NCBI GenBank assembly: GCA_040218735.1 | Contig: JAVJQW010000042.1 | Span: forward strand, 160,001-224,000 | Direction: 5' to 3' | Origin: Deltaproteobacteria bacterium | Lineage (GTDB): Bacteria > Myxococcota > Kuafuiibacteriia > Kuafuiibacteriales > Kuafuiibacteriaceae | DNA: 64,000 bases | Part shown: positions 4,012-52,791 of the stretch, piece by piece | Numbering within the stretch: position 1 is the first letter of the stretch | Layout: every line of letters starts with the position of its first letter | The notes under the pieces: generated by a model | The model's database searches: none | What the model saw: only the letters and a program-made list of their open reading frames with translations | Told to the model about the DNA's origin: nothing | Translations under genes and position numbers: made by a program

Positions 4012-5260
4012 CCGTCGTCTCCCCCTTGGTGTCGAGGACGGCGACGAATCGCCGCGTCGGCGTCAGGTGCTTCCTCGTCGCGGCTTGCACCTCGACCGCC
4101 CCCTCCGGAACCGCGCCGCGGACCGGAACACCGAGCTCCGCGAGCGCGAGATCACGACCGACGTCGAGTGGGTCGTCCTCTTGTGAGCGCCGACCGCCGC
4201 GGACGCTGCGGATTGCGTCGACGACCGGTTGGGTGCCGAACCGCAGATCGCGCAGCTGCCGGACCTCGTCGAGGACGAGGCTCTTCAGCGCGTTGGCGTT
4301 GGCGTCGCGGGCGCCGACGATCCGAACGTACGCGTGGCTCTCGAGTCGCTGCCGCTGCACGCCGCTCGCGACGTACACCGCCGCGCCGTACTGCTTCTGC
4401 AGCTGCTCCGAGAGCCGCTTCTCGATCACGACCGTCGCGACCTCGACCGCATCGAAGTCACCGTCGACGGCCCACCACACCTCCACCACCGGGCTCGCGA
4501 CCCGCGCCGTCACCCAGATCTCACGGCACCGCTCGGAGCGCTCCGGTGCGGCGGGGCGCGCGCGTTTGGGGATAGCCGGCGCGACGACGGTGCCGAGGTG
4601 CTTTCGCACCATCGACTCCGCGCGTGCGGGATCGAAGGCGCCGACGAGCGTCACGACGGCGTTGTCGGGGCGGTAGGTCTGCTGGAACAACCACCGCGCG
4701 TCGTGCGCGGTGAGCGCTGCGGTCTGTTCGAGCTCGTCTTCGACGCCAGCGTAGGGGTGCCCGTCACCGAAGAACGCGCGGCGCGCGTACGCGAAGAATG
4801 TCCCGCCGATGCCGCCTCGTCGTCCGCGCATCTCCCGCATCACGACGGGGTGTTCGTCCGCGAACGTCGCATCACTCATCACCTCGAGCGTGAACGCCAT
4901 GCGATCGGCTTCGCTCCACAACGTACGCTCGAGCGCACCGGTGGGGACGACCGCGTAGTAGGCGGTCGCGTCGAGGAAGGTCGAGGCGTTCATGTCGCGT
5001 CCACCGACCGCCTCCAGCGACGACAGCACTTCGAACGGCTTCGTGTGTTTGGTGCCGCGGAAGGTGAGGTGCTCGACGAGGTGCGCGAGCCCCGCGCGGT
5101 CCTCCGGATCGTCGGCCGCCCCCACGCCGTAGGCGACGGTGACCGCGACGACGGGCTCGCCCGGCATCTCGCGGAGGATCGCGACCATGCCGTTGTCCAT
5201 GACGAACCGCCGGTCACCGTCGGCCGCCGCGAGCGCGAGCAGGACGAGGAGCGCGTTCAC
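3977..5260 (-). CDS. M16 (insulinase-family) zinc peptidase, catalytic subunit
   Basis: DNGM..., GLAHLVEHLTFRGT (HxxEH), NAST, EADRM, YRPDNA; GTG start overlapping the upstream stop. Confidence 0.88.
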   Translation of the reverse strand: MNALLVLLALAAADGDRRFVMDNGMVAILREMPGEPVVAVTVAYGVGAADDPEDRAGLAHLVEHLTFRGTKHTKPFEVLSSLEAVGGRDMNASTFLDATAYYAVVPTGALERTLWSEADRMAFTLEVMSDATFADEHPVVMREMRGRRGGIGGTFFAYARRAFFGDGHPYAGVEDELEQTAALTAHDARWLFQQTYRPDNAVVTLVGAFDPARAESMVRKHLGTVVAPAIPKRARPAAPERSERCREIWVTARVASPVVEVWWAVDGDFDAVEVATVVIEKRLSEQLQKQYGAAVYVASGVQRQRLESHAYVRIVGARDANANALKSLVLDEVRQLRDLRFGTQPVVDAIRSVRGGRRSQEDDPLDVGRDLALAELGVPVRGAVPEGAVEVQAATRKHLTPTRRFVAVLDTKGETTDVARTVGRDCR

Positions 5261-6892: not shown

Positions 6893-8602
6893 GTGGCTGG
6901 ACCGACCGAACCCTCGCGTGATGGCGAGTCGCTCGTCGCCGGAAGGATCCGGATCGGCGAGCCGCTCGGGCGCGGCGGTCAGGGCGCGGTCTTCCGCGGC
7001 GAGATGGTTGGGCCGCAAGGTTTCTTGCGCTCCGTCGCGATCAAACGTGTGACGGGCGCCGCGCCGGGCGCGACCCTCAACGAAGCCCTCCTCGACGAGG
7101 CGCGGCTGGCCTCCGCGATCCATCACCCCAACGTCGTCCAGACGCTCGACGTCGTGGAGGACGGCGATGAGTACGTCATCGTCATGGAGCTCGTGGACGG
7201 GGTCTCGCTCGCGAAGCTGCAGCGCGCGGACCGGAAGCTCCCGCCGCAGATTGCGGCGGGGATCCTGGAGGGGGCCCTCCGCGGCCTCGACGCAGCGCAC
7301 GAAGCGCGAAGCCCGCAGGGGGTGCCGCTTCGGATCGTGCACCGCGACTTCTCGCCGCAGAACATCCTCGTCGACCGGTTCGGGATCGCGAAGGTGCTCG
7401 ACTTCGGTATCGCCAAGGCCGCGGATCGTGCGCAGCCGATGACCCGCGTCGGTGCGTTCAAGGGCAAGGTCCCGTACGCCGCGCCGGAGCAGGTGCAGGG
7501 TGAAGGGGATCGGCGCGTCGACATCTGGGCCGCGGGCGTCGTGCTCTGGGAGACGATCCTCGAGCGCCGCCTCTTCAAACGCGACACGCCGGTCGAGACG
7601 CTCCGGTGCATTCGCACGCTACAGATCCAGCCGCCGATCGCGCTCGACCCGACGCTGCCCCACGGCCTGAGCGTCGTGGCGATGCGTGCGCTCGAGCGCA
7701 CGCCGGACCGCCGCTTCCCGACGGCGCGCGCGATGGCCGACGCCCTCGTCGCCGCCGGCGCGGCGTCGGCGCGGGAGATCGCGGCGTGGGTCGAGCCGCT
7801 CTTCGACACTGCTTCGTCGCCGGAGGGCGGGGCGCCGACGACGCGCATCGGTGCGTGGCTCACGCCGTCGCACGAGGCGCGGCCGGTGGACCCGGACTTC
7901 GCCGCGTCCGAATCCGACGCGACCGGAGGGCCGCCGCCAACACGGCTCGTTCGACCCGCGCCGGGGCCGCCGTCGGCGACGAGCGCCGACGCGGCCGTCG
8001 ACCGTGATTTTGCGGAGGCCCCGCCCCGGACGGTGCGGCTCGCGGCACCCGACCTCGACGAAGCCGGGCCCACGGCCGGTCCGACGCGCGTGCCGCTCGC
8101 GACGACCGACTCCGACGTGGTCGCGGGGGCAGGAGGTCTCGACCCGGCGGACGCCACCGCGCGGGCCGACGCGCCGGCCGCCGAGAGCGTCGAGGAGGGT
8201 GCCCGGCGGGTGCCTCCCCTCTGGATCGCGGGGGCCGCGCTGTTCCTGGCCGCCGGGGCGACGGTGTTCTTCCTCGACGGGCCCCCCCGCGGGCCGACGC
8301 CCGCTCCGCCGCCCTCCGTGCCGGCCGCCGCGGTTGCACCCGAACCCGAACCCGAACCCGCGGTCGAGGCGGCGCCGACGGAGATCGAGCGTGAGGTCGA
8401 ACCCGAACGCGGGGCAGCGGTGGAGACGGAACCGCCGCCCGAGCCCCCGCCGCCGAGGCGACGCCGCGCGCGGCGCGCGAAGAGGAAGCGCAAGAAGGCG
8501 CCCGCCCCGGAGGAGCTCGACTGTGCGCAGCCCTACGTGATGCGGGATGGCGTGAAGGTCTGGCGACGAGAGTGCTTCGCAGCGCAACCGGAACAGCGGT
8601 AG
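6893..8602 (+). CDS. Membrane-spanning Ser/Thr protein kinase
   Basis: LGRGGQG, VAIK, HRDFSPQN, DFG, APE motifs; one TM helix; Pro-rich tail; GTG start preceded by TATACT. Confidence 0.93.
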   Translation: MAGPTEPSRDGESLVAGRIRIGEPLGRGGQGAVFRGEMVGPQGFLRSVAIKRVTGAAPGATLNEALLDEARLASAIHHPNVVQTLDVVEDGDEYVIVMELVDGVSLAKLQRADRKLPPQIAAGILEGALRGLDAAHEARSPQGVPLRIVHRDFSPQNILVDRFGIAKVLDFGIAKAADRAQPMTRVGAFKGKVPYAAPEQVQGEGDRRVDIWAAGVVLWETILERRLFKRDTPVETLRCIRTLQIQPPIALDPTLPHGLSVVAMRALERTPDRRFPTARAMADALVAAGAASAREIAAWVEPLFDTASSPEGGAPTTRIGAWLTPSHEARPVDPDFAASESDATGGPPPTRLVRPAPGPPSATSADAAVDRDFAEAPPRTVRLAAPDLDEAGPTAGPTRVPLATTDSDVVAGAGGLDPADATARADAPAAESVEEGARRVPPLWIAGAALFLAAGATVFFLDGPPRGPTPAPPPSVPAAAVAPEPEPEPAVEAAPTEIEREVEPERGAAVETEPPPEPPPPRRRRARRAKRKRKKAPAPEELDCAQPYVMRDGVKVWRRECFAAQPEQR

Positions 8603-32070: not shown

Positions 32071-34560
32071 TCAGCGGCGCGTCCGAATCAACGCCTTGAC
32101 GCGTTCGGCGTCGTTAGCGTCCGGCGCGAGGTCCACGTAGCGCTGGTAGTGGCGGATCGACTCCGTGGTTCGATCCTCGCGCGCGAAGATTACGCCGAGC
32201 GAACGGTGGCACTCCGGGAGGTCGGCGAGCTCCACGCACTCGAGTAGCTTGGCCTTCGCGGCGTCGACCTTCCCTTTCGCGAGTTGCTGGTTGCCTTCGC
32301 GGTAGAGCAAGCCAGCTTGCGCCAACGCGACGTCCTCGGTGTCGGGGGCGTCGTCCGAGACCGTTTCGACCGGGCGGGTCTGGACCCAGACGTAGGCCAC
32401 CACGGCGCTCACCATCATCAGGAGCAGCATTGCGACCAGCCACCTGCTCTTGGAGGGCGCGCTGGCCGGCACCGTGGGGCTGGCGCGCGAGGGGGCTGCG
32501 CCGTCCAACACACTGTCGGGGGGCGCTTCGATCTCCGGACCGGCCACGTCTTCGACCGGCACCTCCGAGATCTCGCCGCGGGGGATCGTCGTGACGACCA
32601 TCGCCGCCGACGTGCCCGCGGTACCGTCGTCCATCAACGTGTCTTGGGCGTCGGTGCCGAACGGCTGGAGCTTGATCGGATCGTCGACGTGCGGGTCGTC
32701 GAACATCGTCACCGCCGGCCGTGAACGGAGCGGCTCCGTCCGCACCGTCTGGTCGTCGTAGTCGACCTCGGGAAGCTCGTCCTCCTCGGCGAGGGCGCGC
32801 ACGGCCTCCTGCACGTGGGCGGCGAGCGTCGGGTCCCCGAGCGTCGGATCTTCGTTGTCCTCTTGCTCGGTCGGCGCCGAGAGCGCGGAGAGCGCCCGCT
32901 GCGAATCGATCGGGATCGTGGGGCCGTCGTTGCGACCGGGCACCTCATTTTCGGAGCTTGTGTCGCCGCCCGCGTCGGCGCCGCGGATCACCTCGGAGGG
33001 CCCCCCATCTTCGGAGCTCGCTTCGCTCGAGTCGGTGCCGCGGACCGCCGCTGAGGGCCCCCTATTCTCGGAGCTCGCTTCGCTCGACTGGGTGCCGCGG
33101 ACCGCCTCGGAGGGCCCCCCATTTTCGGACCTCGCTTCGCTCGGGCCGAGGGCACGTTCCTTCGGACGGCCCGCGGCGTACCCGCCGCGGACCGCCTCGG
33201 AGGGTACCCCGAGGCCGGACGCCCAGGGCACGGGCGGGTCCGTCGGGGCGGCCGCTTCCTCCGGCCACCTCGGCCGCGGGGGATCCGTCTCGGAGTCGTT
33301 GCGGTGCACCGCGGGGAGGCGCTGGGTGCCGTTGGGCCCCTGCGGCATCGGCGTCTCGGCTTCGTGCGGGAGCGTCGCCCCGGCCGAGGGGGTCCTCGAC
33401 TCGGAGCCGATCAGGTCCGCCTCCGCCCAGGAGATCGGCTCCGACCCCGGGAGCGGCTGACCGGCGTGGGGTGTCGGCGCAGCGTCCGGGGCGTCGGCGC
33501 CCGTGCGCGGTGTCTTCGCGCCGACCACGTCGATCGCCGCGTCCGTGTCGTCCGCGAGCGCTTCGATGTCCGGGTCGGTCGGCACCTGCGCGATCTGCTT
33601 CGGCGACGGTTTGTCCGGGAACGTCGCGAGCATGATCTCCGCGACCTCGTCCGAACCCATCGGGTTCGTCGCCGCGGTGAGGTGCGCCCACAGCGCCTGC
33701 CCCATGTCGCTCGCGTTCTGGTAGCGGCGATCCTTGTGCGCGACGAGCGCCTTCGCACAGATCGCGTCGAGCGACTGCGGGACGTCGCCGTTGACCTCCG
33801 ACGCCGCCGGCACGACGGCGCGCGTGATCGCGCGGAGGGTGTCGATCTCCCGCTTTCGTTTGAATAGATGGCGACCGGTCATCATCTCCCACAGCACGAT
33901 GCCGAGCGAGAAGACGTCCGAGCGGCGGTCGAGCGGCGTCGCCTCCACCTGCTCCGGCGACATGTACGCGTACTTGCCCTTGATGTGTCCGGTGCGCGTG
34001 AAGCTCTGGAACCCGGCGGCCTTCGCGACACCGAAGTCGAGCAGCTTCACCTCCCCGGAGAACGTGACGAAGATGTTCTGCGGGGAGATGTCACGGTGGA
34101 CGAGCCCGAGCGCGCGGCCGTCTTCGCCCGTGGCGTCGTGTGCGTAGTGCAGGCCTTCGCAGGTGCACGCGACGACGTAGGCCATCAGGTCGATCGGGAT
34201 CGGGGTCTTGTTGTCGAGGATGCGGCGCAGCAGTCCGGAGAGCGGGGCGCCGTGGAGGTACCGCATGACGAGGAACGGGCTCCCGTCCGCGATGCCGTAG
34301 TCGGTGATGCCGCAGATGTTCTGGTGCCCGAGGCGCGACAGGATCTTCGCCTCGTTCATGAACATCTGCATGACGTCGGCGCGGGAGGCGAGGTGGGGGT
34401 GGACGCGTTTGACCGCGTACCAGCCTTCGTCCGCCCCGTTGAGGCGCCCGAGGTACACGGAGGCCATGCCGCCGGCCGCGATCTTGCCGAACAGGGTGTA
34501 GTGGCCGAACTGTTCGACCTTGGTCGTCACGCCGGACGCCGGTGGGACCTCGGTCACCAC
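32071..34560 (-). CDS. Ser/Thr protein kinase with long linker, TM helix and extracytoplasmic TPR
   Basis: GGMA, YAVK, HRDISPQN, DFG, YMSPE; C-terminal CHRSLG...HYQRYVDLAP. Confidence 0.95.
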   Translation of the reverse strand: MVTEVPPASGVTTKVEQFGHYTLFGKIAAGGMASVYLGRLNGADEGWYAVKRVHPHLASRADVMQMFMNEAKILSRLGHQNICGITDYGIADGSPFLVMRYLHGAPLSGLLRRILDNKTPIPIDLMAYVVACTCEGLHYAHDATGEDGRALGLVHRDISPQNIFVTFSGEVKLLDFGVAKAAGFQSFTRTGHIKGKYAYMSPEQVEATPLDRRSDVFSLGIVLWEMMTGRHLFKRKREIDTLRAITRAVVPAASEVNGDVPQSLDAICAKALVAHKDRRYQNASDMGQALWAHLTAATNPMGSDEVAEIMLATFPDKPSPKQIAQVPTDPDIEALADDTDAAIDVVGAKTPRTGADAPDAAPTPHAGQPLPGSEPISWAEADLIGSESRTPSAGATLPHEAETPMPQGPNGTQRLPAVHRNDSETDPPRPRWPEEAAAPTDPPVPWASGLGVPSEAVRGGYAAGRPKERALGPSEARSENGGPSEAVRGTQSSEASSENRGPSAAVRGTDSSEASSEDGGPSEVIRGADAGGDTSSENEVPGRNDGPTIPIDSQRALSALSAPTEQEDNEDPTLGDPTLAAHVQEAVRALAEEDELPEVDYDDQTVRTEPLRSRPAVTMFDDPHVDDPIKLQPFGTDAQDTLMDDGTAGTSAAMVVTTIPRGEISEVPVEDVAGPEIEAPPDSVLDGAAPSRASPTVPASAPSKSRWLVAMLLLMMVSAVVAYVWVQTRPVETVSDDAPDTEDVALAQAGLLYREGNQQLAKGKVDAAKAKLLECVELADLPECHRSLGVIFAREDRTTESIRHYQRYVDLAPDANDAERVKALIRTRR
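32945..33205. repeat. Degenerate 57-bp tandem repeat containing CTCGCTTCGCTCG inside the kinase linker
   Basis: TCGGASCTCGCTTCGCTCG at 33011, 33068, 33125; encodes GPSEAVRGTxSSEASSExx. Confidence 0.85.
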
Positions 34561-34618: not shown

Positions 34619-36412
34619 ATGTCCGCGACGCTGCTCAGGAACGGGACCGTGTACGACGGCACCGGCGCGGCGCCCATCGTCGGCGACGTGTTGGTGGAGG
34701 AGGGGGTGGTGAAGGCCGTGGGGCCCTCGTTGACGCACCCCACCGCGGAGGTGATCGATGCGACCGGCCGGTGGGTCATGCCGGGGTTCGTCGACAACCA
34801 CACCCACTACGACGGCGAGGTCCTCGTCGCGCCCCAGCTCTCGGAGTCGGTGCGGCACGGGGTGACGACGGTCCTGCTCGGCGGGTGCTCGCTGTCGTTC
34901 GTCTACTCGGACGTCATGGATTGTTGCGACATGTTCACGCGGGTCGAAGCGTTCCCGCGCGACATCCTCGTCCCGATCCTGAAGGACGAGAAGAAGTGGT
35001 CGTCGCCGCGCGAGTGGATCGATCACGTCGAGTCGCTGCCGCTCGGACCGAACATCGCTTCGTTCATCGGCCACTCCGACATTCGCGCGGCGGTGATGGG
35101 GATCGATCGTTCGCTCACGAAGGGCGTGCGGCCGAGCGGTGAAGAGCTGTCGCGGATGGTGGCGATGCTCGAGGAGGCGCTCGACGCCGGAATGCTCGGC
35201 ATCTCCATGCAGCACAACCCGTGGGACAAGATGGACGGGCGTCACTGGTCGAAGCTGTTGCCCGCGGCCTACGCGACCATGAAGGAGCGCGCGGCGCTGT
35301 GCTCGGTGGCGCGGCGTCGCGGCGCGCACCTGCAAGGCATCCCGAACCTCGTCAACCGCGTGGGGGCGCTCTGGTATATGGCGCAGAGCGCGTCGTTCTT
35401 CGGGCTGCGCAAGAAGCTGAAGACGTCGATGGTCGCGATGATGGACCTCAAAGGGGACCCGTACATCCGCGCGGTGATCAGCGGGCTGTCCGGCTTCTTC
35501 AACAAGGTCTTCGGCGCGGACTTCAGGATGCAGACGTTCCCGGTGCCGTTCCGCGTGTACGCGCGCGGGATGGACCTGGTGATCTTCGAAGAGTTCCCGA
35601 CGGGCGCGCTCGCGCGACACCTCTCGAAGGATCTCTCGAAGCGCGACGCCACGCTGAAGGACGCGGACTATCGCGCGAAGTTCAAGCGCCACTACAAGAA
35701 CAAGTGGGCGCCGAAGATCTGGCAGAAGGACTTCGGCGACGCGTACGTGCTCGAGGCGCCCGACGCCGAGCTCGTCGGAAAGTCGTTCTCGCAGATCGCA
35801 GAGGAGCGCGGGCAGCACCCGGTCGACACGTTCTTGGATCTGGTCGTGGAGATGGACCAGGAGATCCTGTGGGAGACGACGGTCGGTAACGAGGATCCCG
35901 CGCGCTACGGCCCGCTCTACAACGACGAGAACGGGCTGTTCGGCTTCGCCGATTCCGGCGCACACATCAACAACATGGCGTTCTACAACAACCCGTTGCG
36001 CGTCCTTCAGTACGTGAAGGCCTCGCACGATCGCGGAGCGCCGTTGATGGACATCGAGAAGGCGGTGTGGCGCCTCACGAAGGAGAACGCCGACTTCTTC
36101 AACCTCGCCGACGTCGGCCACCTCGCGCCCGGCAAACGCGCTGACGTCACGGTGATCGATCCCGCGCACCTCACGGACGCCGTGCACGAGCTCCACACCG
36201 CGCCGTTCGTCGGTGACTCGGTGCGGCTCGTGAACCGCAACGACGACGCGGTGACGTGTGTCCTCATCGGCGGGAAGGTCGCGTGGCGCGACGGCGCGCT
36301 GTCGGATCGGCTGGGCAAGGAGCGCTACGGTTCGTTCCTCGTCGGCGATCACGAAGCGGTGCAGGTCCCGACCGAAGCGGCGCCTCCACTCGCCGCGCGC
36401 ACCGCGGTCTGA
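34619..36412 (+). CDS. N-acyl-D-amino-acid deacylase family amidohydrolase
   Basis: NGTVYDGTG, PGFVDNHTHYD, GVTTV, DSGAH, GKRADV. Confidence 0.9.
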   Translation: MSATLLRNGTVYDGTGAAPIVGDVLVEEGVVKAVGPSLTHPTAEVIDATGRWVMPGFVDNHTHYDGEVLVAPQLSESVRHGVTTVLLGGCSLSFVYSDVMDCCDMFTRVEAFPRDILVPILKDEKKWSSPREWIDHVESLPLGPNIASFIGHSDIRAAVMGIDRSLTKGVRPSGEELSRMVAMLEEALDAGMLGISMQHNPWDKMDGRHWSKLLPAAYATMKERAALCSVARRRGAHLQGIPNLVNRVGALWYMAQSASFFGLRKKLKTSMVAMMDLKGDPYIRAVISGLSGFFNKVFGADFRMQTFPVPFRVYARGMDLVIFEEFPTGALARHLSKDLSKRDATLKDADYRAKFKRHYKNKWAPKIWQKDFGDAYVLEAPDAELVGKSFSQIAEERGQHPVDTFLDLVVEMDQEILWETTVGNEDPARYGPLYNDENGLFGFADSGAHINNMAFYNNPLRVLQYVKASHDRGAPLMDIEKAVWRLTKENADFFNLADVGHLAPGKRADVTVIDPAHLTDAVHELHTAPFVGDSVRLVNRNDDAVTCVLIGGKVAWRDGALSDRLGKERYGSFLVGDHEAVQVPTEAAPPLAARTAV

Positions 36413-36532
36413 CGTGTGTGCGTCTGCGCAAAAAGTGATCGTTTCGGCGCCAGGCGTCACATGTAAGGTATCGACCCCGTAACCTCAGTCTTCGACCGCC
36501 TCGCCGTGGTCTTGAACCGTGCACTGGAGCGC

Positions 36533-37480
36533 ATGTTCGTCATCGCCGACGACGTCGGACCGATCGACGATCACACGCGCGCCCACGACGAGCCGGCGCG
36601 CGAGTGCGCGGCGTGCGGTTGGGTGGGGGACAGTCGGGTGTGTGATCGCTGCGGTCAGTGCAGCTCGGTCGCGCGTGTGCCGCGTGTCATTCGCGGTCAG
36701 TTCGTCGTTCGCTCGTGCATCGGGCGCGGTGCATCGGGCGTCGTCTATCTCGCGAAGGATCGCACCCTGGATCGGTGGGTCGCGGTCAAGACGCTGGCCG
36801 ACGTGCCCGCGACCGATCGCCTGATCCAGGAAGCCCAAACCATGGCGCGCGTGGTCCACCCGAACCTCGCCACGATCTACGGCGTGGAGACGTGGCGCTC
36901 CCGGTGCCTCCTGATGGTGGAGTACGTCGGTGGCGGGACCCTCGAAGACCGTTTGAAGGCGGGGCCCCTCGAGCCGACGGAGGTCGTAGAGTTTGCGCTC
37001 GCGTTGTTCTCCGCGCTCCGCGCGATACACGCCGCCGGGGTGCTTCACCGCGACGTCAAGCCGAGCAACATCGCGCGCGCCGCCGACGGTACGTGGAAGC
37101 TCATCGACTTCGGCGTCGCCCAGATGGCGAACTCGGACGACGAGACGTACGTGGGCACGCCGCTGTACACGTCGCCGGAGCAACTGTGGGGCGGACCGGC
37201 GAACGTCGCCGCGGATCTGTGGGCGGCGGCGGTGACGAGCTACGAAGCGCTGTGCGGCGTGCACCCGCTCGCGGACGACCGTCGCGCCACCGAGGTCGCG
37301 GAGGCGCTCTGCGGCGCGTGGTCGCCTGACCCGGATCGGCTCCCCGAAGGCTGCCCGGACGCGCTCGTGTCGCTGCTCGTCGACGCGCTCGACGCCGACC
37401 CGGGGCGCCGCCCGAGCTCCGCCGCCGAGGTGATCGAGCGTCTCACGAGCCATCGCTTCGCGACGGGGTACGCCGCCTAG
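36533..37480 (+). CDS. Ser/Thr protein kinase with N-terminal CxxC...CxxC zinc ribbon
   Basis: IGRGASG, VAVK, HRDVKPSN, DFG, GTPLYTSPE; start uncertain (36506 or 36533). Confidence 0.88.
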   Translation: MFVIADDVGPIDDHTRAHDEPARECAACGWVGDSRVCDRCGQCSSVARVPRVIRGQFVVRSCIGRGASGVVYLAKDRTLDRWVAVKTLADVPATDRLIQEAQTMARVVHPNLATIYGVETWRSRCLLMVEYVGGGTLEDRLKAGPLEPTEVVEFALALFSALRAIHAAGVLHRDVKPSNIARAADGTWKLIDFGVAQMANSDDETYVGTPLYTSPEQLWGGPANVAADLWAAAVTSYEALCGVHPLADDRRATEVAEALCGAWSPDPDRLPEGCPDALVSLLVDALDADPGRRPSSAAEVIERLTSHRFATGYAA

Positions 37481-37481
37481 G
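37462..37481 (+). repeat. Left direct repeat GACGGGGTACGCCGCCTAGG (att-like)
   Basis: Identical to 41550-41569; contains the kinase stop codon. Confidence 0.92.
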
Positions 37482-37502
37482 TTTGCATCGTTGCCCTAAC
37501 GT

Positions 37503-39113
37503 CTAGTCCTCGGGAACAGCGCCATCAGGAACACCCAGGGACGTTAGGAACATCGAAAAGTCGGTCTCCAGCGCAATTCTCCTAGTCAAGATAAATCGGT
37601 CTACGTCGCCGTCGCCCAGACACTCCCATGCTCGATCATTAATTAGATGACTTGCGCGGTATGACTCCGATCGGAAAAGCTCGTGTTCAAACCTGACGCC
37701 GCGCCGTCTCGCTTCCAGCGCTGCAACGAAGCCGTCTTCTTTTTCCAGTGAGAGCAAGAATCTGTTTCCGGGATCTCGAGCTAGGTCACCGCCAGACGTC
37801 GCGACGCCACGAATGAGGGCTCTCGCAGCTTGTGATTCCAACCGAGATATTAGATCCTCGTCCTCTTGCTGGTACCTGAACAACTGTAACGCGAGGGCCT
37901 TGATTCGTGCGTGACGTGGGTCAGAAGTATTCGGTAGCTCAAGCGGCTCCCAGGCCGAGACTGACCAGGGCCAGGCTACATCTGCGCGCGAATCGAGCGC
38001 CTGGAGGTACCGCAGCATGCTCGACAATCGGTACCCGCTCATTCCTGAGAATGATGCTTGTGCAGTCGTCCACCAGAACCACCGGACCAGAGCCGAACGG
38101 AGGGCTTTCTTCGGTTGGCGCGGATGGCGTCGTAGCACGTCTGCGAGCAGCACGGCCTGATACGAGTATGGCAGCAAGCCGAGCCCCACGATCCCAAACT
38201 GCTTGCGCATGAACCTAGCCGTGCGCTCGAAGCCGGTAATCACGTCATCGAGAACGCTCGGGTCGCGCCTGAGTGCCTCGCCGAGCTCGCGACCCGAACT
38301 GGTATAGATATCCATATCAAGCGCGGCTCGTATTCCCGCCAGGATATACGACTCATCGATCCCGCCCCACCCCAATCGGCCCAGTCGTTCCTTTGCAGTG
38401 TCGAGCCGTTCTCTCAACGAGTAGTCTTCTTGCCAGGTGAGGGCAGCTACAAGATCCAGATCAGACATCTTCGTACCTTCTGTATTCAGAAGGCCGAACG
38501 TCCTAATCGCTTCGTCGACAGCGTCGGTAACAACAGGAACGATTGGAATCTTGTACTCGCGTACTGCCCGCGCGATTCGATCACTTACCTCAACAAGTTC
38601 GTCCGCATCATCGCCATCAAGGGAGCGCTGAAACCGAAGTAGCGCTACGCTATCCAGGATCAGTCGTCCGTCTAACACGAACTTCATTTCGCCTTGGTCT
38701 ACGTCATCCAAGAACGTCCAGTTCCGTCTACGAAGGTCATAGCCGAGGGCCCACCGTCCACCGTCCCGATGGTCCCTAATGTTGGCCTCCTTCGGTGACC
38801 GGAGCGCAGCAAACAGCGTTGACAGTCGCTGAAAACCATCCAGTAGGTATTGCCTCCCCGGACTCTTGCTGCGAGGCACTTCGTAGGGGCCGATTTGCTT
38901 TCTGAAATTGACGTGGATGTCCGTGCGCCATACCATCACACTGCCGATCGGGTATCCCTTCGACACGCTGTCAAGCAGGCTGAGGCGCTGGTCGCCGCTC
39001 CACCGATCGGGTCTTTGGAATTCAGGCACAACAAGTTCGCCTCGGCCTATCTGCTCCAGTACCTGGTATAGGTACTGGATCTGAGGTTCACTTGCGTAGG
39101 AAAGTGTCGACAT
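37503..39113 (-). CDS. DUF262 (ParB/Srx-like, GmrS-type) domain protein
   Basis: VPEFQR..RW, LLDSVSKGYPIGSVMVW, LLDGFQRLSTL, FGLLNTEG motifs; C-terminal GNRFLL...SHLI...RFILTR. Confidence 0.9.
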   Translation of the reverse strand: MSTLSYASEPQIQYLYQVLEQIGRGELVVPEFQRPDRWSGDQRLSLLDSVSKGYPIGSVMVWRTDIHVNFRKQIGPYEVPRSKSPGRQYLLDGFQRLSTLFAALRSPKEANIRDHRDGGRWALGYDLRRRNWTFLDDVDQGEMKFVLDGRLILDSVALLRFQRSLDGDDADELVEVSDRIARAVREYKIPIVPVVTDAVDEAIRTFGLLNTEGTKMSDLDLVAALTWQEDYSLRERLDTAKERLGRLGWGGIDESYILAGIRAALDMDIYTSSGRELGEALRRDPSVLDDVITGFERTARFMRKQFGIVGLGLLPYSYQAVLLADVLRRHPRQPKKALRSALVRWFWWTTAQASFSGMSGYRLSSMLRYLQALDSRADVAWPWSVSAWEPLELPNTSDPRHARIKALALQLFRYQQEDEDLISRLESQAARALIRGVATSGGDLARDPGNRFLLSLEKEDGFVAALEARRRGVRFEHELFRSESYRASHLINDRAWECLGDGDVDRFILTRRIALETDFSMFLTSLGVPDGAVPED

Positions 39114-40099
39114 TAAAGTGCCCCGAGAATAAAGTGGAAAATTTCTCCTAGCTCGTCGTTAATCTTGAACTGTTCGCACATGACTTCATTGGCGTACTTA
39201 CAGGCGCGCCACACCGAGTTTCCCAGTGGGACCTTCAAGTCTCGCAACTCCTTCCTGCTAACGTTGTAGTTCTCGTCTTCAGCTTTAGGGATACCGTCTT
39301 TCAGGTGGTGATGTCTCTGCACTCTTGCGGGAAGACGGCTATACACTTCGATATGTCGGTGCTGTTCCTCGGTCGCAGGCATCTCTTTCGCCCAAGTCGC
39401 GATCGCGGGAGGTGGAATGTAGTTCTCGGCCATGCGGCGTGAAAGGACTCTGATTCGGATATTCGCCGCTCTGGCGGCCTCTACAGCTTTCCTTACGGCG
39501 TCGGGAAGATTGTTCGTGCAGCGCTCATACTCTTCGCTAGACGTTAGCCATGGTGACGTTGTATCGCTATCGGTAATAACAACCGTCCGGAGACGTCGCA
39601 ATCCGTCGCTCCTTTCGTCCTCCAGTCGCCGTGCGACGTTCGTCACACCACCGGCGTTGCTCCATCTTACGAAGTCCCTGCTACGTGCCGTCTTCCAGTT
39701 TCTTCGATGGGTCGGTGGAACGAGCGCATCAAGAAGCCCTCCGTCGCTCGATTCGTCCTCTACGAGAACCTCAAGCGGTGTCATCCACAGGGCAACAGCA
39801 TCGTCCAAAGTCAAGACGGGGGGCGTACTCCCCCAGTCGGATCGGTCAGGATCTCCAACCTGAACGGTGAAAGTACTTGGGAACCTCGCATGCCGTCTCT
39901 TCGCGTGATTGATCGCGCGGCGGAAGGTGTCTCGTTCTTCCTCGTTTCGACTCGACAGCCAATCGTCAAACACAGCCCTTCCGTCTGGTACCACGATAAG
40001 GTTGTGCCGCCCGCGAGACGCTAGAGCGACAAGCGTCACGAGGGATATACGCCGTTCAGTGCGGCATTCGACCGCTGTTCGCAGTAGTTCAATCCGCAC
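39113..40099 (-). CDS. Uncharacterised protein with TOPRIM-like acidic motifs (putative nuclease effector)
   Basis: VLVEDESSD, AGG, VVITDSD, LSRRMAENYIP; GTG start with GGAG RBS overlapping the ATPase end; TAATG coupling to the next gene. Confidence 0.7.
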   Translation of the reverse strand: MRIELLRTAVECRTERRISLVTLVALASRGRHNLIVVPDGRAVFDDWLSSRNEEERDTFRRAINHAKRRHARFPSTFTVQVGDPDRSDWGSTPPVLTLDDAVALWMTPLEVLVEDESSDGGLLDALVPPTHRRNWKTARSRDFVRWSNAGGVTNVARRLEDERSDGLRRLRTVVITDSDTTSPWLTSSEEYERCTNNLPDAVRKAVEAARAANIRIRVLSRRMAENYIPPPAIATWAKEMPATEEQHRHIEVYSRLPARVQRHHHLKDGIPKAEDENYNVSRKELRDLKVPLGNSVWRACKYANEVMCEQFKINDELGEIFHFILGAL

Positions 40100-41300
40100 T
40101 CGTGGAGCTCCAATTCGACCTAGCCTCGCTGAGCCGCTCCGCCAAATCAGATGCCTCCGAAAAAATGTCTGGCGGAAGATGGTGGTCCGGTACACCTTTG
40201 TCAGTGAGTTCGACTCTCTGCGCGATGCTGCGACCATCATCCAACTGATGCACCCAGTGGATCGCGACCTGACTAGGGAGTAGTTTTTCTCTCGCCACGG
40301 ACAAGAGTACCGAAAGCAGGAAATGCTCCGAATGCGTCTCGACGAGGATTCTGGTCTGAGGATTTCTACGCACAGCCTTCACTATCCACGCAGTAACCTG
40401 TTCGTGAAGTCGTGGATGAAGGTGCAGTTCCGGCTGTTCCAACGCCAGAATGCGGGGGCCAGAGTCAGTCATTGACTGTGCTACAGAGACAGCCACTGGC
40501 AGCACTTGGGCGAGGCCTTCGCCCGTGTCCGCCAGATCGACGCTAAGCGCTGGCTGCGCGGGGGGCGAGATCCTAATTCGAAAATCGTCTTCCACCTCCT
40601 CAATCGAAAGCCTAAGGTTCAGGTGGTTGTGGAAAAAATCGACGACTAGCTCAAAGACCTCTGACCCATCCAACTTGGCATAGGCCAGTACGCGAGCCGC
40701 GTCCTCCCCATCCGGCCGCATTGGGCCATTTGGTCGGCCACCGAACGGAATTCGCCGTGGGACACGCGCACGTAGCGAATCGAGCCACTGAGATCGCTCG
40801 AGGTCCGCGTGGGCGGGCATGTCCCAGCGAAGATTCGGCCCGGACACTGATAGTCCCTCGATGCTCAGATCGATGGTTTCATCTCTTCCACTACCTATGA
40901 GTCTATACTGAGTAAGTCCCTGCGTAGTCCATTCAAGGCTGCTGGTTCCAGTATGGTCGGTGCGGACGATTTTCTCGACAACCTGCCTGCGCAGGTCCGG
41001 CAAGTCTCGAATCGTGTACGTCGCCTTCGACTCCTCATCCTCGACGATGACTGCGAGGGAAAGGCCGTTGTCCATGCGAGACTTGACGTCCGAGAATGTC
41101 GCTTCGCGTAGCGACGGTGCTGCAAAGGAGATTGGTGGGCCACCTTCCCGCTGCGTCTGCTGTAGGAGAGGAACAAGTCGGAGGAGCGCACTCTTGCCGG
41201 AGCTATTGTAGCCGAACAGCAGAGTGAACGGTCGAACGTCGACCTGTGTGGGGTCCACGAATCCTCGGTAGTTCTCAACGCCTAGAAGCTGCAACGACAC
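40089..41300 (-). CDS. ABC-type AAA ATPase (AAA_15/AAA_21, DUF3696-like C-terminus)
   Basis: VENYRGF, Walker A GYNSSGKS, TGEGLAQVLP signature, LEQPELHLHP, VETHSEH. Confidence 0.92.
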   Translation of the reverse strand: MSLQLLGVENYRGFVDPTQVDVRPFTLLFGYNSSGKSALLRLVPLLQQTQREGGPPISFAAPSLREATFSDVKSRMDNGLSLAVIVEDEESKATYTIRDLPDLRRQVVEKIVRTDHTGTSSLEWTTQGLTQYRLIGSGRDETIDLSIEGLSVSGPNLRWDMPAHADLERSQWLDSLRARVPRRIPFGGRPNGPMRPDGEDAARVLAYAKLDGSEVFELVVDFFHNHLNLRLSIEEVEDDFRIRISPPAQPALSVDLADTGEGLAQVLPVAVSVAQSMTDSGPRILALEQPELHLHPRLHEQVTAWIVKAVRRNPQTRILVETHSEHFLLSVLLSVAREKLLPSQVAIHWVHQLDDGRSIAQRVELTDKGVPDHHLPPDIFSEASDLAERLSEARSNWSSTSAD

Positions 41301-41549
41301 GATGGGCCACCTTCGAGCCGATGCTCACACATCTCTTGGCCGTCGGCCAGCAGGTTTGGACGCCCGGCTCGATGCCATACCGTCCGGAGAAGTCTCGGGC
41401 CCAGCCCCCATGGTCAAGGCCGTCAATGACCTCGTTCCAAAGAACGTCAACGTGCAGGCGCGTAAGGGAAGCTGGGAACTCGAACGATGAGCGCCGATCT
41501 ACTTGAGGCGGTTGCGCCTACTACGTAGAGGTTCAGGCATGTTGTGCGT

Positions 41550-41569
41550 GACGGGGTACGCCGCCTAGG
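41550..41569 (+). repeat. Right direct repeat GACGGGGTACGCCGCCTAGG (att-like)
   Basis: Identical to 37462-37481; contains the stop codon of the minus-strand sigma-54 activator. Confidence 0.92.
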
Positions 41570-43061
41570 AATCGTTGTGTCGCCCCAACCCGTGCAGGCG
41601 GATCAGGTTGTACATGTGCGAACGCGTGATCTGTAGGCGGTCGGCCGCGCGCGCTACGACGCCGTCCTCGGCGTCGAGCGCCTGCGCCACCAACCTCCGC
41701 TGAAAGGCGCGCGTCGCCTCGTGGTACGACAGCTCGTCGTCTCGCCGACCGTCTTCGGCGGGCGCGAAATGCTGGGTCTCGATCTGCATCGCGCCGTCCC
41801 CGTTCGCTCGCAGGCGCGCGCCGATGACCACGTTCTCGAGCTCGCGGATGTTGCCGCTCCACTCTTGGTTCTGCAGCCAGAACAGCGCGGCCGGCGCGAT
41901 CGGGATCGGCTCGAGCCCGGCTTCGCTCGCCCGCTGATAGGCGAGGTGGCTCGCCAGCGCCGGGATGTCCTCGACCCGTTCCGCGAGGCTCGGCATCCGG
42001 ATCGGGAGCACGTTGATGCGGTAGTAGAGGTCCTCGCGGAAGCGCCGCTCGCGAACGCGCTCGGCGAGGTCCGCGTTCGTCGCCGTCACGACCCGTGCGT
42101 CGGCTTCCCGTTGTTGGTCGGCGCCCACCGGGAAGTAGATCTTCTCCTGCAGGAGCGTGAGCAACTTGGCTTGCGCGTCGAGGGACAGCTCCGCGACCTC
42201 GTCGAGGAACAGCGTGCCGCCCGACGCAGCGGCGACTTTGCCCTTCCGATCTTCGGTCGCCGTGGAGTGCCCGCCGCGCACCGCGCCGAACAGCTCGTTC
42301 TCCAGGAGCTCGGTCGGGAGGTTCGCGCAGTTGACGTGGACGAAGGGGCCCAGACGCCGCAGGCTGTTGCCGTGAATCGCGCGCGCCACGAGTGACTTGC
42401 CCGTGCCGCTCGCTCCCGTCAGGAGCACCGCGATGTCCGTCTTCGCGACCAGCTCCAGCTGCTCGAAGACCCGGGCGAGGGCGGCGCTGCGCCCCACGAT
42501 CGATTCGACGGACAGACGAACGCGAAGGGCATCCGTGGCGTCGTCGTCGCTGGATGGGTGCGCGAGTCGGCGCACGACCGGCGCGATGTGGAAAACGACG
42601 CGTTCGAACAGCGCGAGGTCGTCGTCGGCGAACCCTCCGCTCGAACGACCCTCGAGGTAGATCGAGCCGAGCACCGGTGCATCTCCGATCGGCGCGCAGA
42701 CGACGGCTCCGACCCTCTTCAGCTGCACGCTCTTCCGTTCCCGGAATCGTGTGTCGGCGAGCGCCGACGACGTGTGGACCGTCCGCCCCTCCGCGATGGC
42801 CTCGGCGATGATGCCGCGCGACACACGTTTCTGCGCTCGCTCGCGCTCCTCGTCCGTCAGGCCGGTGTCGATCGTCTCGGCTTCGCTCCGCGTCGCGTCG
42901 CGGTAGATCTCCATGTAGCCGTGTTCGGCCCCGAGCGTCCGCGCGGCGAGCGCCAACGCGCCGCGCACCGCCTCTCGCGGATCGTCGACGTGATAGAGGT
43001 CGAGCAGCGCAGCGTAGAGGTCACGTTCGAGCTCGGTGCGGCGGGGATCGTTCGAGCTCAC
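41565..43061 (-). CDS. GAF-domain sigma-54-interacting transcriptional regulator
   Basis: GAF segment, GASGTGKS, ELFG..RGGHSTA, LFLDEV, FREDLYYR, WSGNIREL, HTH; GTG start inferred. Confidence 0.9.
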   Translation of the reverse strand: MSSNDPRRTELERDLYAALLDLYHVDDPREAVRGALALAARTLGAEHGYMEIYRDATRSEAETIDTGLTDEERERAQKRVSRGIIAEAIAEGRTVHTSSALADTRFRERKSVQLKRVGAVVCAPIGDAPVLGSIYLEGRSSGGFADDDLALFERVVFHIAPVVRRLAHPSSDDDATDALRVRLSVESIVGRSAALARVFEQLELVAKTDIAVLLTGASGTGKSLVARAIHGNSLRRLGPFVHVNCANLPTELLENELFGAVRGGHSTATEDRKGKVAAASGGTLFLDEVAELSLDAQAKLLTLLQEKIYFPVGADQQREADARVVTATNADLAERVRERRFREDLYYRINVLPIRMPSLAERVEDIPALASHLAYQRASEAGLEPIPIAPAALFWLQNQEWSGNIRELENVVIGARLRANGDGAMQIETQHFAPAEDGRRDDELSYHEATRAFQRRLVAQALDAEDGVVARAADRLQITRSHMYNLIRLHGLGRHNDS

Positions 43062-43139
43062 GCCCTCGCATGCTCCGTGACGACCAGAACCGGAATCAAT
43101 CCGCGGTAACGCCGCCGTCCGCGAGGCCAGGCGAATCAC

Positions 43140-44141
43140 TCAGTGCGCGAGCAGAGTCCACAGCGCGTCGGCCGCCAACCCCGGCGACCCCGCACCCGCG
43201 CGCTCCGCTTCGTGCACGCGTTTCACCACGCGCCGGTTGATCGGCGCGTCGATGCCGGCCGCTTCGGCGCGTCGGACGATCTCGCCGTTGAGCCAATCGA
43301 CCTCCGTCGGTCGGCCCCGCGTGAGGTCTTCCCACATCGACGAGCGCGCGTCGGCGTCGACCTTCATCTGTGCGCCGGTCACGAGGCGGACGATCGGCGT
43401 CGGCAGGCGCAACACCTTCGGCATCAGGCCGACCGGTACGCCGCGCAGCTTCGCGGGCCGCACACCCGAAGCGCGCGCGACGGCGAGGCCCTCGTCGATC
43501 AGCGCGGCGACGCAGCGACGATAGCCAGGCGACAATAGGATCTGTCGGGTCGGCGCGTCCGACAACGCGCTCACCGCGTTGTTGAGGTTCACACACAGCT
43601 TCGTCCACTGGTGCGGCACGAGATCGTCGTACACGACGAGGTCGAGCTCGCCGGCGCGAATCGCGGCGTTCGATCGCGGCTCGGGTTCGAGCACGATCGG
43701 CCCGTCCATCGTCCGGTGGAATCGACCCTCGCCGCGCGACACCACGTTGTACTCCACGATGCCGGGCACCACGCGTCGCGGACCGAGGTGCAGGCGCAAC
43801 CGGTCCGCGTTGCCCAACCCGTTCTGCAGGCTCGCGACGACCGCGTCCTCCCGGAGAATCGGCGCGAGCACCTTCGCGACCTCTTCGGTCTGCCCGCTCT
43901 TCACCGCGACGAACACGACGTCGCACGCCGCGAGCGCCGCGGGATCCGTGACGTACCGGATCGTCTGTGCGCGGCGGGGCGCGGCGTCCAGGTCCTGGAC
44001 CGAGAGCCCGTGCTCCGCGATCTCTTTTGCCAGCCGCTCGCGCCCGACGAGGACGACCTCGGCGCCGGACAGCGCGATCTTGCCGCCGACGTAACAACCG
44101 ATGGAACCGGCGCCCATCACGCCGACGGTGGGGGCCGCCAC
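43140..44141 (-). CDS. panE: 2-dehydropantoate 2-reductase (ApbA/PanE family)
   Basis: VMGAGSIG, VAVKS, SLQNG, WTKLCVN, SSMWEDL...TEVDWLNG. Confidence 0.88.
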   Translation of the reverse strand: MAAPTVGVMGAGSIGCYVGGKIALSGAEVVLVGRERLAKEIAEHGLSVQDLDAAPRRAQTIRYVTDPAALAACDVVFVAVKSGQTEEVAKVLAPILREDAVVASLQNGLGNADRLRLHLGPRRVVPGIVEYNVVSRGEGRFHRTMDGPIVLEPEPRSNAAIRAGELDLVVYDDLVPHQWTKLCVNLNNAVSALSDAPTRQILLSPGYRRCVAALIDEGLAVARASGVRPAKLRGVPVGLMPKVLRLPTPIVRLVTGAQMKVDADARSSMWEDLTRGRPTEVDWLNGEIVRRAEAAGIDAPINRRVVKRVHEAERAGAGSPGLAADALWTLLAH

Positions 44142-44220
44142 GCGCGCGATGATGCCGCTTCGCTCGTCGCCGGCAAATCGGTCTTCCCGCATCGCGCCCC
44201 CCGGTGCTACCCCACCCCCT

Positions 44221-45117
44221 GTGTTTCCGCGGCTGTCGTTCTTCTTCCGGCAGGCGCTCCTCGCGCTCGTCCGGTCGCTCGGCGTCACGTCGGTCGCGGT
44301 GGCGACGATCGGCGTCGCGCTCGCGGTGCTCGCGACCTTCGTGGTCATCGTCGACAACCTGCGCCGCGTCGCGGAAGAGCTCGGTCGCGACGTCGAGATC
44401 TCCGCGTACGTGCCGAAGGCGATCACCCGCGTCGACGGCGTGACCCTCGCCGCCGAGATCGAGTCCTGGGACGACGTCGAGAAGGCGCGCTTCCTCGAGT
44501 CCGAAGTCGCGATGGAGGAGTTCCGCGAGGTGCTCGCGGAGGACGCCGTGCTCCTCGAAGGCCTGCCGCCGGACCTGCTCCCGCCGTCCGTCGAGATCCG
44601 CCTCGTCCCCCGAACGTGGACGCGCGTGGAGGTCGAGGCGATCGGTCGCCGCATCGCCGAGCTGAAACCGATCGAAGACGTGCGCTTCGGTCAGGACGAC
44701 ATCGAACGCGTCAACGCGATGCTCGGCTTCGCGCGCATCACCACGCTGATCCTCGGCATCGCGCTCTGCCTCGGCACCATACTGATCGTGTCGAACACCA
44801 TCCGCCTTACCGTCTACGCCCGGCGCGACGAGATCGAGATCATGAGCCTCGTCGGAGCGACCAACGCGTTCGTTCGCGCGCCCTTCGTGCTCGAAGGCAT
44901 GATCCAGGGCGTCCTCGGTGGCGCGTTCGCCGCCATCGTCCTCGTCGTGCTCGAAGAAGGGCTCCGCGTGGGCCTCGAACGCGGCCTCTCCTACGCCTAC
45001 GGGCCGGTCGATCTCTCGTTCGTCCCCTTACACTTCATCGGCTACCTCCTCATCGCGGGCGTGACGCTCGGCCTCGTGGGTTCGGTGCTCGCGGTGGGGC
45101 GCTTCCTGAAGGTATGA
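44221..45117 (+). CDS. ftsX: Cell division permease-like protein FtsX
   Basis: Four TM helices, LPPSVEI, SNTIRLTVYARRDEIEIMSLVGAT, PFVLEG. Confidence 0.93.
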   Translation: MFPRLSFFFRQALLALVRSLGVTSVAVATIGVALAVLATFVVIVDNLRRVAEELGRDVEISAYVPKAITRVDGVTLAAEIESWDDVEKARFLESEVAMEEFREVLAEDAVLLEGLPPDLLPPSVEIRLVPRTWTRVEVEAIGRRIAELKPIEDVRFGQDDIERVNAMLGFARITTLILGIALCLGTILIVSNTIRLTVYARRDEIEIMSLVGATNAFVRAPFVLEGMIQGVLGGAFAAIVLVVLEEGLRVGLERGLSYAYGPVDLSFVPLHFIGYLLIAGVTLGLVGSVLAVGRFLKV

Positions 45118-52718: not shown

Positions 52719-52791
52719 GGGCCCATAGCTCAGCGGTTAGAGCTGTCGGCTCATAACCGATAGGTCCCTGGTTCGAATCCAGGTGGGCCCA
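52719..52791 (+). tRNA. tRNA with CAT anticodon, probably tRNA-Ile2 (lysidine-modified); CCA not encoded
   Basis: GGGCCCA/TGGGCCC acceptor stem, TAGCTCAG D-arm, CTCATAA anticodon loop, GTTCGAATC T-loop; C4:G69 and C5:G68 favour Ile2 over Met. Confidence 0.93.

Follow-up and report, generated by a model that had tools for sequence, protein, structure and literature searches.

A direct-repeat-bounded three-gene cassette in a Myxococcota genome is a copy of the candidate defence system PDC-M55

The window analysed here is a stretch of 64,000 nucleotides (nt) from contig JAVJQW010000042.1 of a Deltaproteobacteria bacterium of the phylum Myxococcota, and the locus in question consists of three open reading frames (ORFs) on its minus strand, at 37503-41300, which we call genes A, B and C (Table 1). 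This locus is the catalogued candidate defence system PDC-M55, and not a new kind of system. Each protein was matched nearly end to end by the corresponding hidden Markov model (HMM) of PADLOC-DB v2: A by PDC-M55A (E 1.5e-52, protein residues 1-396 against profile positions 1-415 of 421), B by PDC-M55B (E 9.6e-23, 1-286 against 1-258 of 315), its sole PADLOC match, and C by PDC-M55C (E 2.3e-79, 8-529 against 10-540 of 554). The three genes are adjacent, on the same strand and in the same order as the PDC-M55 models. No structural difference from PDC-M55 was found, and the copy of the window is divergent, its A protein reaching 177 bits against 294 bits for the copy of a Terriglobia genome. A sequence-only reading of the locus had proposed that the three genes form an undescribed variant or hybrid of known systems; given the full match to a catalogued model, this claim is unsupported. 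Novelty is confined to the structural and evolutionary reading of the locus and to its clean cassette boundaries.

The PDCs are 145 untested candidates that were added to PADLOC with the preprint of Payne et al. (2024, doi 10.1101/2024.01.29.577857), where they are described as clusters of which one or more copies lie inside a BREX, DISARM or type I restriction-modification system ('guilt-by-embedding'). As PADLOC already models PDC-M55, the locus adds no system of a new kind. It offers a clean, minimal, direct-repeat-bounded example of PDC-M55 from a large Myxococcota genome, and concrete structural hypotheses for B, C and A, none of which was found for PDC-M55 in the main texts that were searched.

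The ORF coordinates confirmed the claimed coupling of the three minus-strand genes: the end of A and the beginning of B overlap over 11 nt (40089-40099), and the stop codon of B and the start codon of C have one base in common in a TAATG sequence (39111-39115). The N-termini of homologues support the start codons assigned to A and B. Gene order was followed through 20 loci (labelled L below, genomes being labelled G), in 17 of which the contig covers the operon. The A-B-C order on one strand was found in 16 of these 17 loci, 14 of them by tblastn; at L029 and L032, a PADLOC HMM match for B lies between A and C. The three loci truncated by a contig end fit the same order, and the B start that was chosen overlaps the A stop by 4 nt in 14 of the 17. 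The PDC-M55B model found a match in 16 genomes, G000 among them, out of 401 sampled from the phylum, and in none of 14 control genomes. The operon is also complete in L004, from a metagenome-assembled genome (MAG) of Terriglobia (Acidobacteriota), with E values of 3.9e-88, 4e-28 and 1.7e-129 for PDC-M55A, B and C respectively. Such whole-genome HMM searches were far more productive than a peptide-pattern scan of genome contigs, which yielded three loci only; the closest named relatives in that scan were Myxococcota MAGs.

Protein B was searched both by profile and by structure. No match was found in Pfam, NCBIfam or the sequences of the PDB, and the ESM Atlas returned only unnamed clusters of 'hypothetical protein'. 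A full HMMER search recovered relatives in 1,015 clusters at E<=0.001 (546 at E<=1e-10), meaning that the B family is large but unnamed. Pfam applied to 121 B relatives gave 20 scattered families with one or two members each, and no Toprim or PIN family; a search of the PDB sequences with the B-family profile gave nothing meaningful, and plasmid and phage collections, searched with B by tblastn, yielded no match at E<=1e-5. A model of B was obtained with AlphaFold2 from the 121 relatives (pLDDT, for the predicted local distance difference test, 96.4). Foldseek found no match of this model in the PDB at E<=0.001, the likeness to OLD proteins coming solely from a wide structural search. In that search, the top five matches of residues 106-328 were OLD-family TOPRIM nucleases, with Z scores of 10.2 to 6.5: the C-terminal region of BpOLD (6nk8_B, Z 10.2, 174 residues aligned), AriB (8v46_D, Z 8.0), Thermus OLD (TsOLD, 6p74_A, Z 8.0), GajA (Z 6.8) and the effector of retron Eco2 (Z 6.5). 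Residues 1-106 matched the PIN domain of SMG5 (2hwy_B, root-mean-square deviation 2.7, 75 residues aligned). The architecture predicted from the model starts with a PIN-like N-domain (residues 1 to about 106); an OLD-family TOPRIM and a helical domain make up the rest (106-328). Among the 121 relatives, E114, D177 and R222 are invariant and D179, E225, Y227 and K267 are conserved in at least 90%, while no conserved acidic residue was found in the N-domain. The earlier description of B as a stand-alone TOPRIM-like protein is borne out. At one locus (L030:6095-6838), the B gene was recovered as two tblastn pieces in different frames, and may carry a frameshift.

Protein C is, as had been noticed, a long DUF262 protein (Pfam GmrSD_N/DUF262, 2.1e-23). 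Its best PADLOC matches after PDC-M55C are HEC-05/BrxU-like models; the NsnA model reaches just 5.5e-4, and on the DUF262 part only. C keeps all three DUF262 motifs, QRxxxW starting at residue 33, DGxQR at 92 and FxxxN at 206, and D92, G93, Q95 and R96 are invariant. A model of C (pLDDT 92.4) aligned over residues 7-534 with the type IV restriction enzyme BrxU (7p9k_A; Z 16.4, 480 residues, Foldseek E 8e-11), which points to three domains: DUF262 at the N-terminus (ParB-like nucleoside triphosphatase, NTPase), a helical domain in the middle and a DUF1524-like one at the C-terminus. No DUF1524 Pfam match was found in C at E<=1, though the fold of the region is retained. At the HNH stretch, C reads ...ALIRGV..., so that the column of the catalytic histidine holds R435; of 60 members of the C family, 7 have the histidine there, and R and Q are found in 20 each. 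According to the preprint of Payne et al. (doi 10.1101/2024.01.29.577857), the HNH motif of BrxU is DHIYP, mutation of its acidic residue and histidine abolishes defence, and the E471A and H472A mutations of HEC-06 do likewise. With this (D/E)H dyad gone, C would lack the nuclease of type IV restriction enzymes, whose fold it keeps. In L022, L023 and L030, a short C of 383-390 amino acids (aa) was found, whose match to PDC-M55C is confined to the first ~100 residues of the model; NsnA of the Menshen system is equally long, which suggests the loss of the DUF1524-like domain. In L024, A and B are present and no C was detected, with ~1.2 kb free downstream of B.

Menshen (NsnA-NsnB-NsnC) was reportedly described by Millman in 2022. 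In the account of Li et al. (2025, PMC12065111), NsnA consists of ParB-DUF262 and ParBDB domains; NsnB is an ABC ATPase with a DUF3696 tail, in which the DE of Walker B is replaced, GxG stands for SGG and an arginine for the Q motif; and NsnC joins an inactive-PIN N-domain to a variable nuclease, Toprim folds (DUF4276, RloB) among them. Protein A resembles NsnB in several respects. It is an ABC ATPase by Pfam, as had been read from its sequence (AAA_15, 1e-16; AAA_21, 6.7e-12), and the NsnB HMM of PADLOC-DB covers it in full length at 3e-29, second only to PDC-M55A. Its motifs are a Walker A GYNSSGKS (from residue 30), a GxG-type signature DTGEG (from 258), a Walker B region LEQPELHLHP (from 287) and an H-loop ETHSEH (from 321), and all four are kept in 20 family members. 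In the alignment, E288-Q, G260xG262 and the invariant R177, which we would assign to the Q-loop position, match the peculiarities of NsnB. The DUF3696 tail was detected in 15 of 20 A-family members at E<=1. The AriA, GajA and Old models matched only the terminal ATPase motifs of A (residues 250-328 in the case of AriA). The kinship with Menshen, PARIS and OLD that had been suggested for the locus is real.

We consider it rather probable that the locus is a complete PDC-M55 member, related to Menshen but arranged as ATPase, effector and sensor, and that it works as a sensor, a transducer and a nuclease. C would sense invading, possibly modified, DNA, with its DUF262 NTPase as the switch, a role that the literature proposes for NsnA and reports as shown for GmrSD-type proteins. 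A, an NsnB/HEC-03-group ATPase whose tail is of the DUF3696 type, would pass the signal to B. B, the only nuclease of the three predicted to be active, would be the executing one, cutting DNA by the E/DxD metal site of its TOPRIM domain, or tRNA in the manner of AriB, the PARIS effector, reported to be a Toprim nuclease that cleaves tRNA. In B, the PIN-like domain is probably a module for docking or for substrate binding; it may attach to A's tail, in line with the prediction of Li et al. for NsnB and NsnC (PMC12065111), or bind RNA. The infection would be halted, probably by abortive infection; the AriB-like fold of B, together with the tRNA cleavage by AriB, makes both an RNA target and abortive infection plausible. 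Prediction of an A+B complex from the family alignments gave 'no answer' (score 0.01), and so brings no evidence for or against this scheme.

Several observations weigh against it. The PIN-like call for the N-domain of B depends on a middling Z score of 6.3, and hhalign of the B family against six PIN partners of HEC-03 gave a probability of 1.2%, leaving this kinship without support at the sequence level. The A protein of the window has itself no DUF3696 match at E<=1. The catalytic position of Walker B is a glutamine in this protein and in most of its relatives, so that ATP may be bound and not quickly hydrolysed. Among the 79 ORFs flanking 16 other loci, PADLOC matches amounted to one PtuA, one retron-type PRTase and three mad2, and Pfam returned mostly housekeeping families (GidA in four, RecA, TruD) and one integrase; these neighbourhoods support a defence role weakly. 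Finally, a full-text search on the name PDC-M55 returned no paper, and no experiment or published mechanism was found for it. The tests of PDCs that were found concern other PDCs only, and two of these, M63 and S04, showed no defence activity in their native host.

The closest alternative is that the locus is simply Menshen, permuted to NsnB-NsnC-NsnA and with a Toprim-type NsnC. The parts do correspond one to one: a DUF262 protein, an AAA_15/DUF3696-type ATPase recognised by the NsnB model, with the DUF3696 tail in most of the family, and a PIN-like plus nuclease effector, for which both Toprim folds and inactive-PIN N-domains are on record in Menshen. The order, however, is not that of Menshen, whose loci are retrieved, in the article of Li et al., as nsnA, then nsnB, then a third gene (PMC12065111), whereas here the ATPase comes first and the DUF262 protein last. 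Of 16 canonical NsnB loci from this phylum, 14 have the DUF262 gene directly upstream of the ATPase, and no B-family gene was found in 30 NsnB/HEC-03 loci. The ATPases also fall apart. In the 401 genomes, NsnB bit scores were 317-391 for the canonical ATPases, ~180-206 for the HEC-03 group and 97-137 for those of PDC-M55. In a quick maximum likelihood tree of 50 sequences, the 20 PDC-M55 rows were on one side of a branch with an SH-aLRT (Shimodaira-Hasegawa-like approximate likelihood ratio test) support of 99, and the 16 canonical NsnB rows were split off by another branch (SH-aLRT 100). As for the other two proteins, C is GmrSD-like throughout its 536 aa, a degenerate DUF1524-like domain included, compared to the 385 positions of the NsnA profile that matches it so weakly, and B, with its OLD-like TOPRIM, matches no NsnC model, DUF4276 or RloB. 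We therefore find it unlikely that the locus is Menshen proper. Because of its own ATPase clade, its different order and the absence of a B gene from NsnB/HEC-03 loci, it was filed as PDC-M55, a sister of Menshen and HEC-03. Canonical Menshen ATPases are themselves present in the sampled Myxococcota genomes (L044-L059), with DUF262 upstream in at least 14 loci, and one genome, G367, carries both canonical Menshen and PDC-M55.

HEC-03, an ABC ATPase with a VapC-like PIN protein, is reported in the preprint of Payne et al. as validated, both genes being required for defence (doi 10.1101/2024.01.29.577857). Like PDC-M55, it has a closely related ATPase (one of the HEC-03 type scores 4e-58 on PDC-M55A), and a downstream overlapping partner with a PIN-fold domain. 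It differs in having two genes, a PIN with a VDTNV-type active-site motif, no TOPRIM, and no DUF262 gene within 1.5 kb. Fourteen HEC-03-type loci were seen in Myxococcota (L060-L073), with the ATPase (HEC-03B model, 1.8e-106) followed by an overlapping PIN of ~190 aa that carries the VDTNV motif; PADLOC-DB and the preprint's text use the labels A and B of HEC-03 the opposite way round. PARIS likewise combines an ABC ATPase and an OLD-family TOPRIM nuclease, and B resembles the AriB fold, but the AriA models cover little of A, B has no DUF4435 Pfam match, and the DUF262 gene is extra. In OLD and Gabija, the TOPRIM is fused to the ATPase (OLD, GajA), whereas here the two are separate ORFs and B has a PIN-like N-domain. 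Finally, C shares with the GmrSD/BrxU/SspE proteins the DUF262 NTPase motifs and the whole three-domain architecture of BrxU, but it has lost the HNH dyad, and its operon also encodes an ATPase and a distinct nuclease.

The limits of the locus are sharp. Across 37500-41499, the G+C content is 0.545-0.592, compared to 0.700 on the left (36500-37499) and 0.687-0.700 on the right (41500-44499), and two copies of a direct repeat, identical at 22 of 23 positions, coincide exactly with these transitions. The 20-nt core of the repeat was found at only these two sites in the 11.6-Mb assembly, allowing up to 2 mismatches, and the reversed control gave none. The unit measures 4,088 bp from repeat start to repeat start and holds A, B, C and ~246 bp upstream of A, without an integrase or any other gene; the three genes are therefore the only cargo of this islet, as had been stated from the sequence. 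The promoter of the cassette is presumed to lie in the leader upstream of A, although a scan for sigma-70 and terminator consensus sequences found none in the leader or downstream of C. Since the repeat carries the stop codons of two convergent genes (in its right copy, CCTAGG is a stop on either strand), the unit looks like an insertion between these genes that duplicated its target.

Table 1. Coordinates of the cassette, its repeats and its flanking genes in the window
Feature	Position	Strand	Remarks
Gene A	41300..40089	-	GTG start, 403 aa
Gene B	40099..39113	-	GTG start, 328 aa
Gene C	39113..37503	-	ATG start, 536 aa
Non-coding leader upstream of A	41301..41546	-	AAGGTGG-like ribosome-binding site ~8 nt before GTG
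Left direct-repeat copy, 23 nt	37459..37481	.	carries stop codon of flanking Ser/Thr kinase gene
Right direct-repeat copy, 23 nt	41547..41569	.	carries stop codon of flanking sigma-54 activator gene
Ser/Thr kinase gene	36506-37480	+	left flank
GAF/sigma-54 activator gene	41565-43139	-	right flank

Other loci gave further signs of mobility. The L023 cassette, one of those with a short C, is bounded by direct repeats of ~100 bp (4782-4883 and 8312-8410) that include a GC-rich hairpin and are identical at 46 of 46 and 47 of 49 positions. Between L023 and L030, which belong to one genus, identity is 87.8% over 3,387 nt, limited to the cassette, the flanks being unrelated. Closer to the window, genome G108 (same genus, 75% complete) has window positions 36403 and 43161 joined within 37 bp, so that an amidohydrolase gene directly meets a PanE/ApbA gene; kinase, cassette and activator (segment 36404-43160) are all missing. 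This gap of 6.76 kb means that the variable segment exceeds the low-GC islet, and may reflect nested events. In 19 other genomes of the family, neither the repeat nor an empty repeat site was found, and the contigs of one DNA sequencing run, probably the source of the assembly, gave short stray pieces and no informative joint; among the sequencing runs listed, none was of RNA. We infer that the cassette moves as a minimal three-gene unit, without integrase.

Such a cassette could also be a selfish addiction module, similar to a toxin-antitoxin pair, in which B would be a toxic nuclease restrained by A and/or C; the cassette would be kept since losing it does harm, and defence would not be the function selected for. 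Relatives at different sites, the lack of an integrase and flanks made mostly of housekeeping genes rather than defence islands all fit this possibility, and HEC-03 is reported to be toxic on induction (doi 10.1101/2024.01.29.577857). However, the closest characterised relatives (Menshen, HEC-03, PARIS, OLD and GmrSD/BrxU) are all anti-phage, and the PDC clusters, as the preprint describes them, have one or more copies inside BREX, DISARM or type I restriction-modification systems. We judge pure addiction improbable; as abortive-infection systems commonly resemble toxin-antitoxin modules, it does not exclude a defence role. Finally, a type IV restriction enzyme with helpers, in which C would itself do the cutting of modified phage DNA, with A and B in accessory roles, fits the whole-length alignment of C with BrxU and its intact DUF262 motifs, but is very improbable since the HNH histidine is absent from the window copy and from 53 of 60 family members, no DUF1524 match was found, and the reported dyad mutations abolish defence in BrxU and HEC-06.

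Beyond the scheme in which C senses, A transduces and B cuts, it is quite possible, though we propose it tentatively, that PDC-M55 is a working system bridging two classes. A GmrSD/BrxU-type sensor of modified DNA, devoid of its HNH nuclease, would have been rewired to a Menshen/HEC-03-type ATPase that controls a separate OLD-type TOPRIM nuclease by PIN-fold docking, and the whole would spread as a unit of 3.5-4.1 kb without integrase, duplicating the 3' ends of genes at its landing site. Since the histidine is still present in 7 of the 60 C-family members, the hand-over of the nuclease function could be traceable within one family. If true, a type IV restriction scaffold now acts purely as the sensor of a nuclease gated by an ATPase, which would help to explain the origin of Menshen-type systems.

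The flanking kinase and sigma-54 activator were considered as members of the system and rejected: their G+C content is host-like, they lie outside the repeats, and their families are unremarkable among the 79 neighbours of the other loci. The surroundings of the islet, with two Ser/Thr kinase genes (32071-34560 and 36506-37480, one with TPR repeats) and the activator, are typical of a large myxobacterial genome. The window contains a single tRNA, at 52719. Elsewhere, the flanks of L021 and L025-L028 contribute four GidA/MnmG and two GidB to the 79 ORFs, a recurrence that hints at a repeated position beside gidAB in one myxobacterial family.

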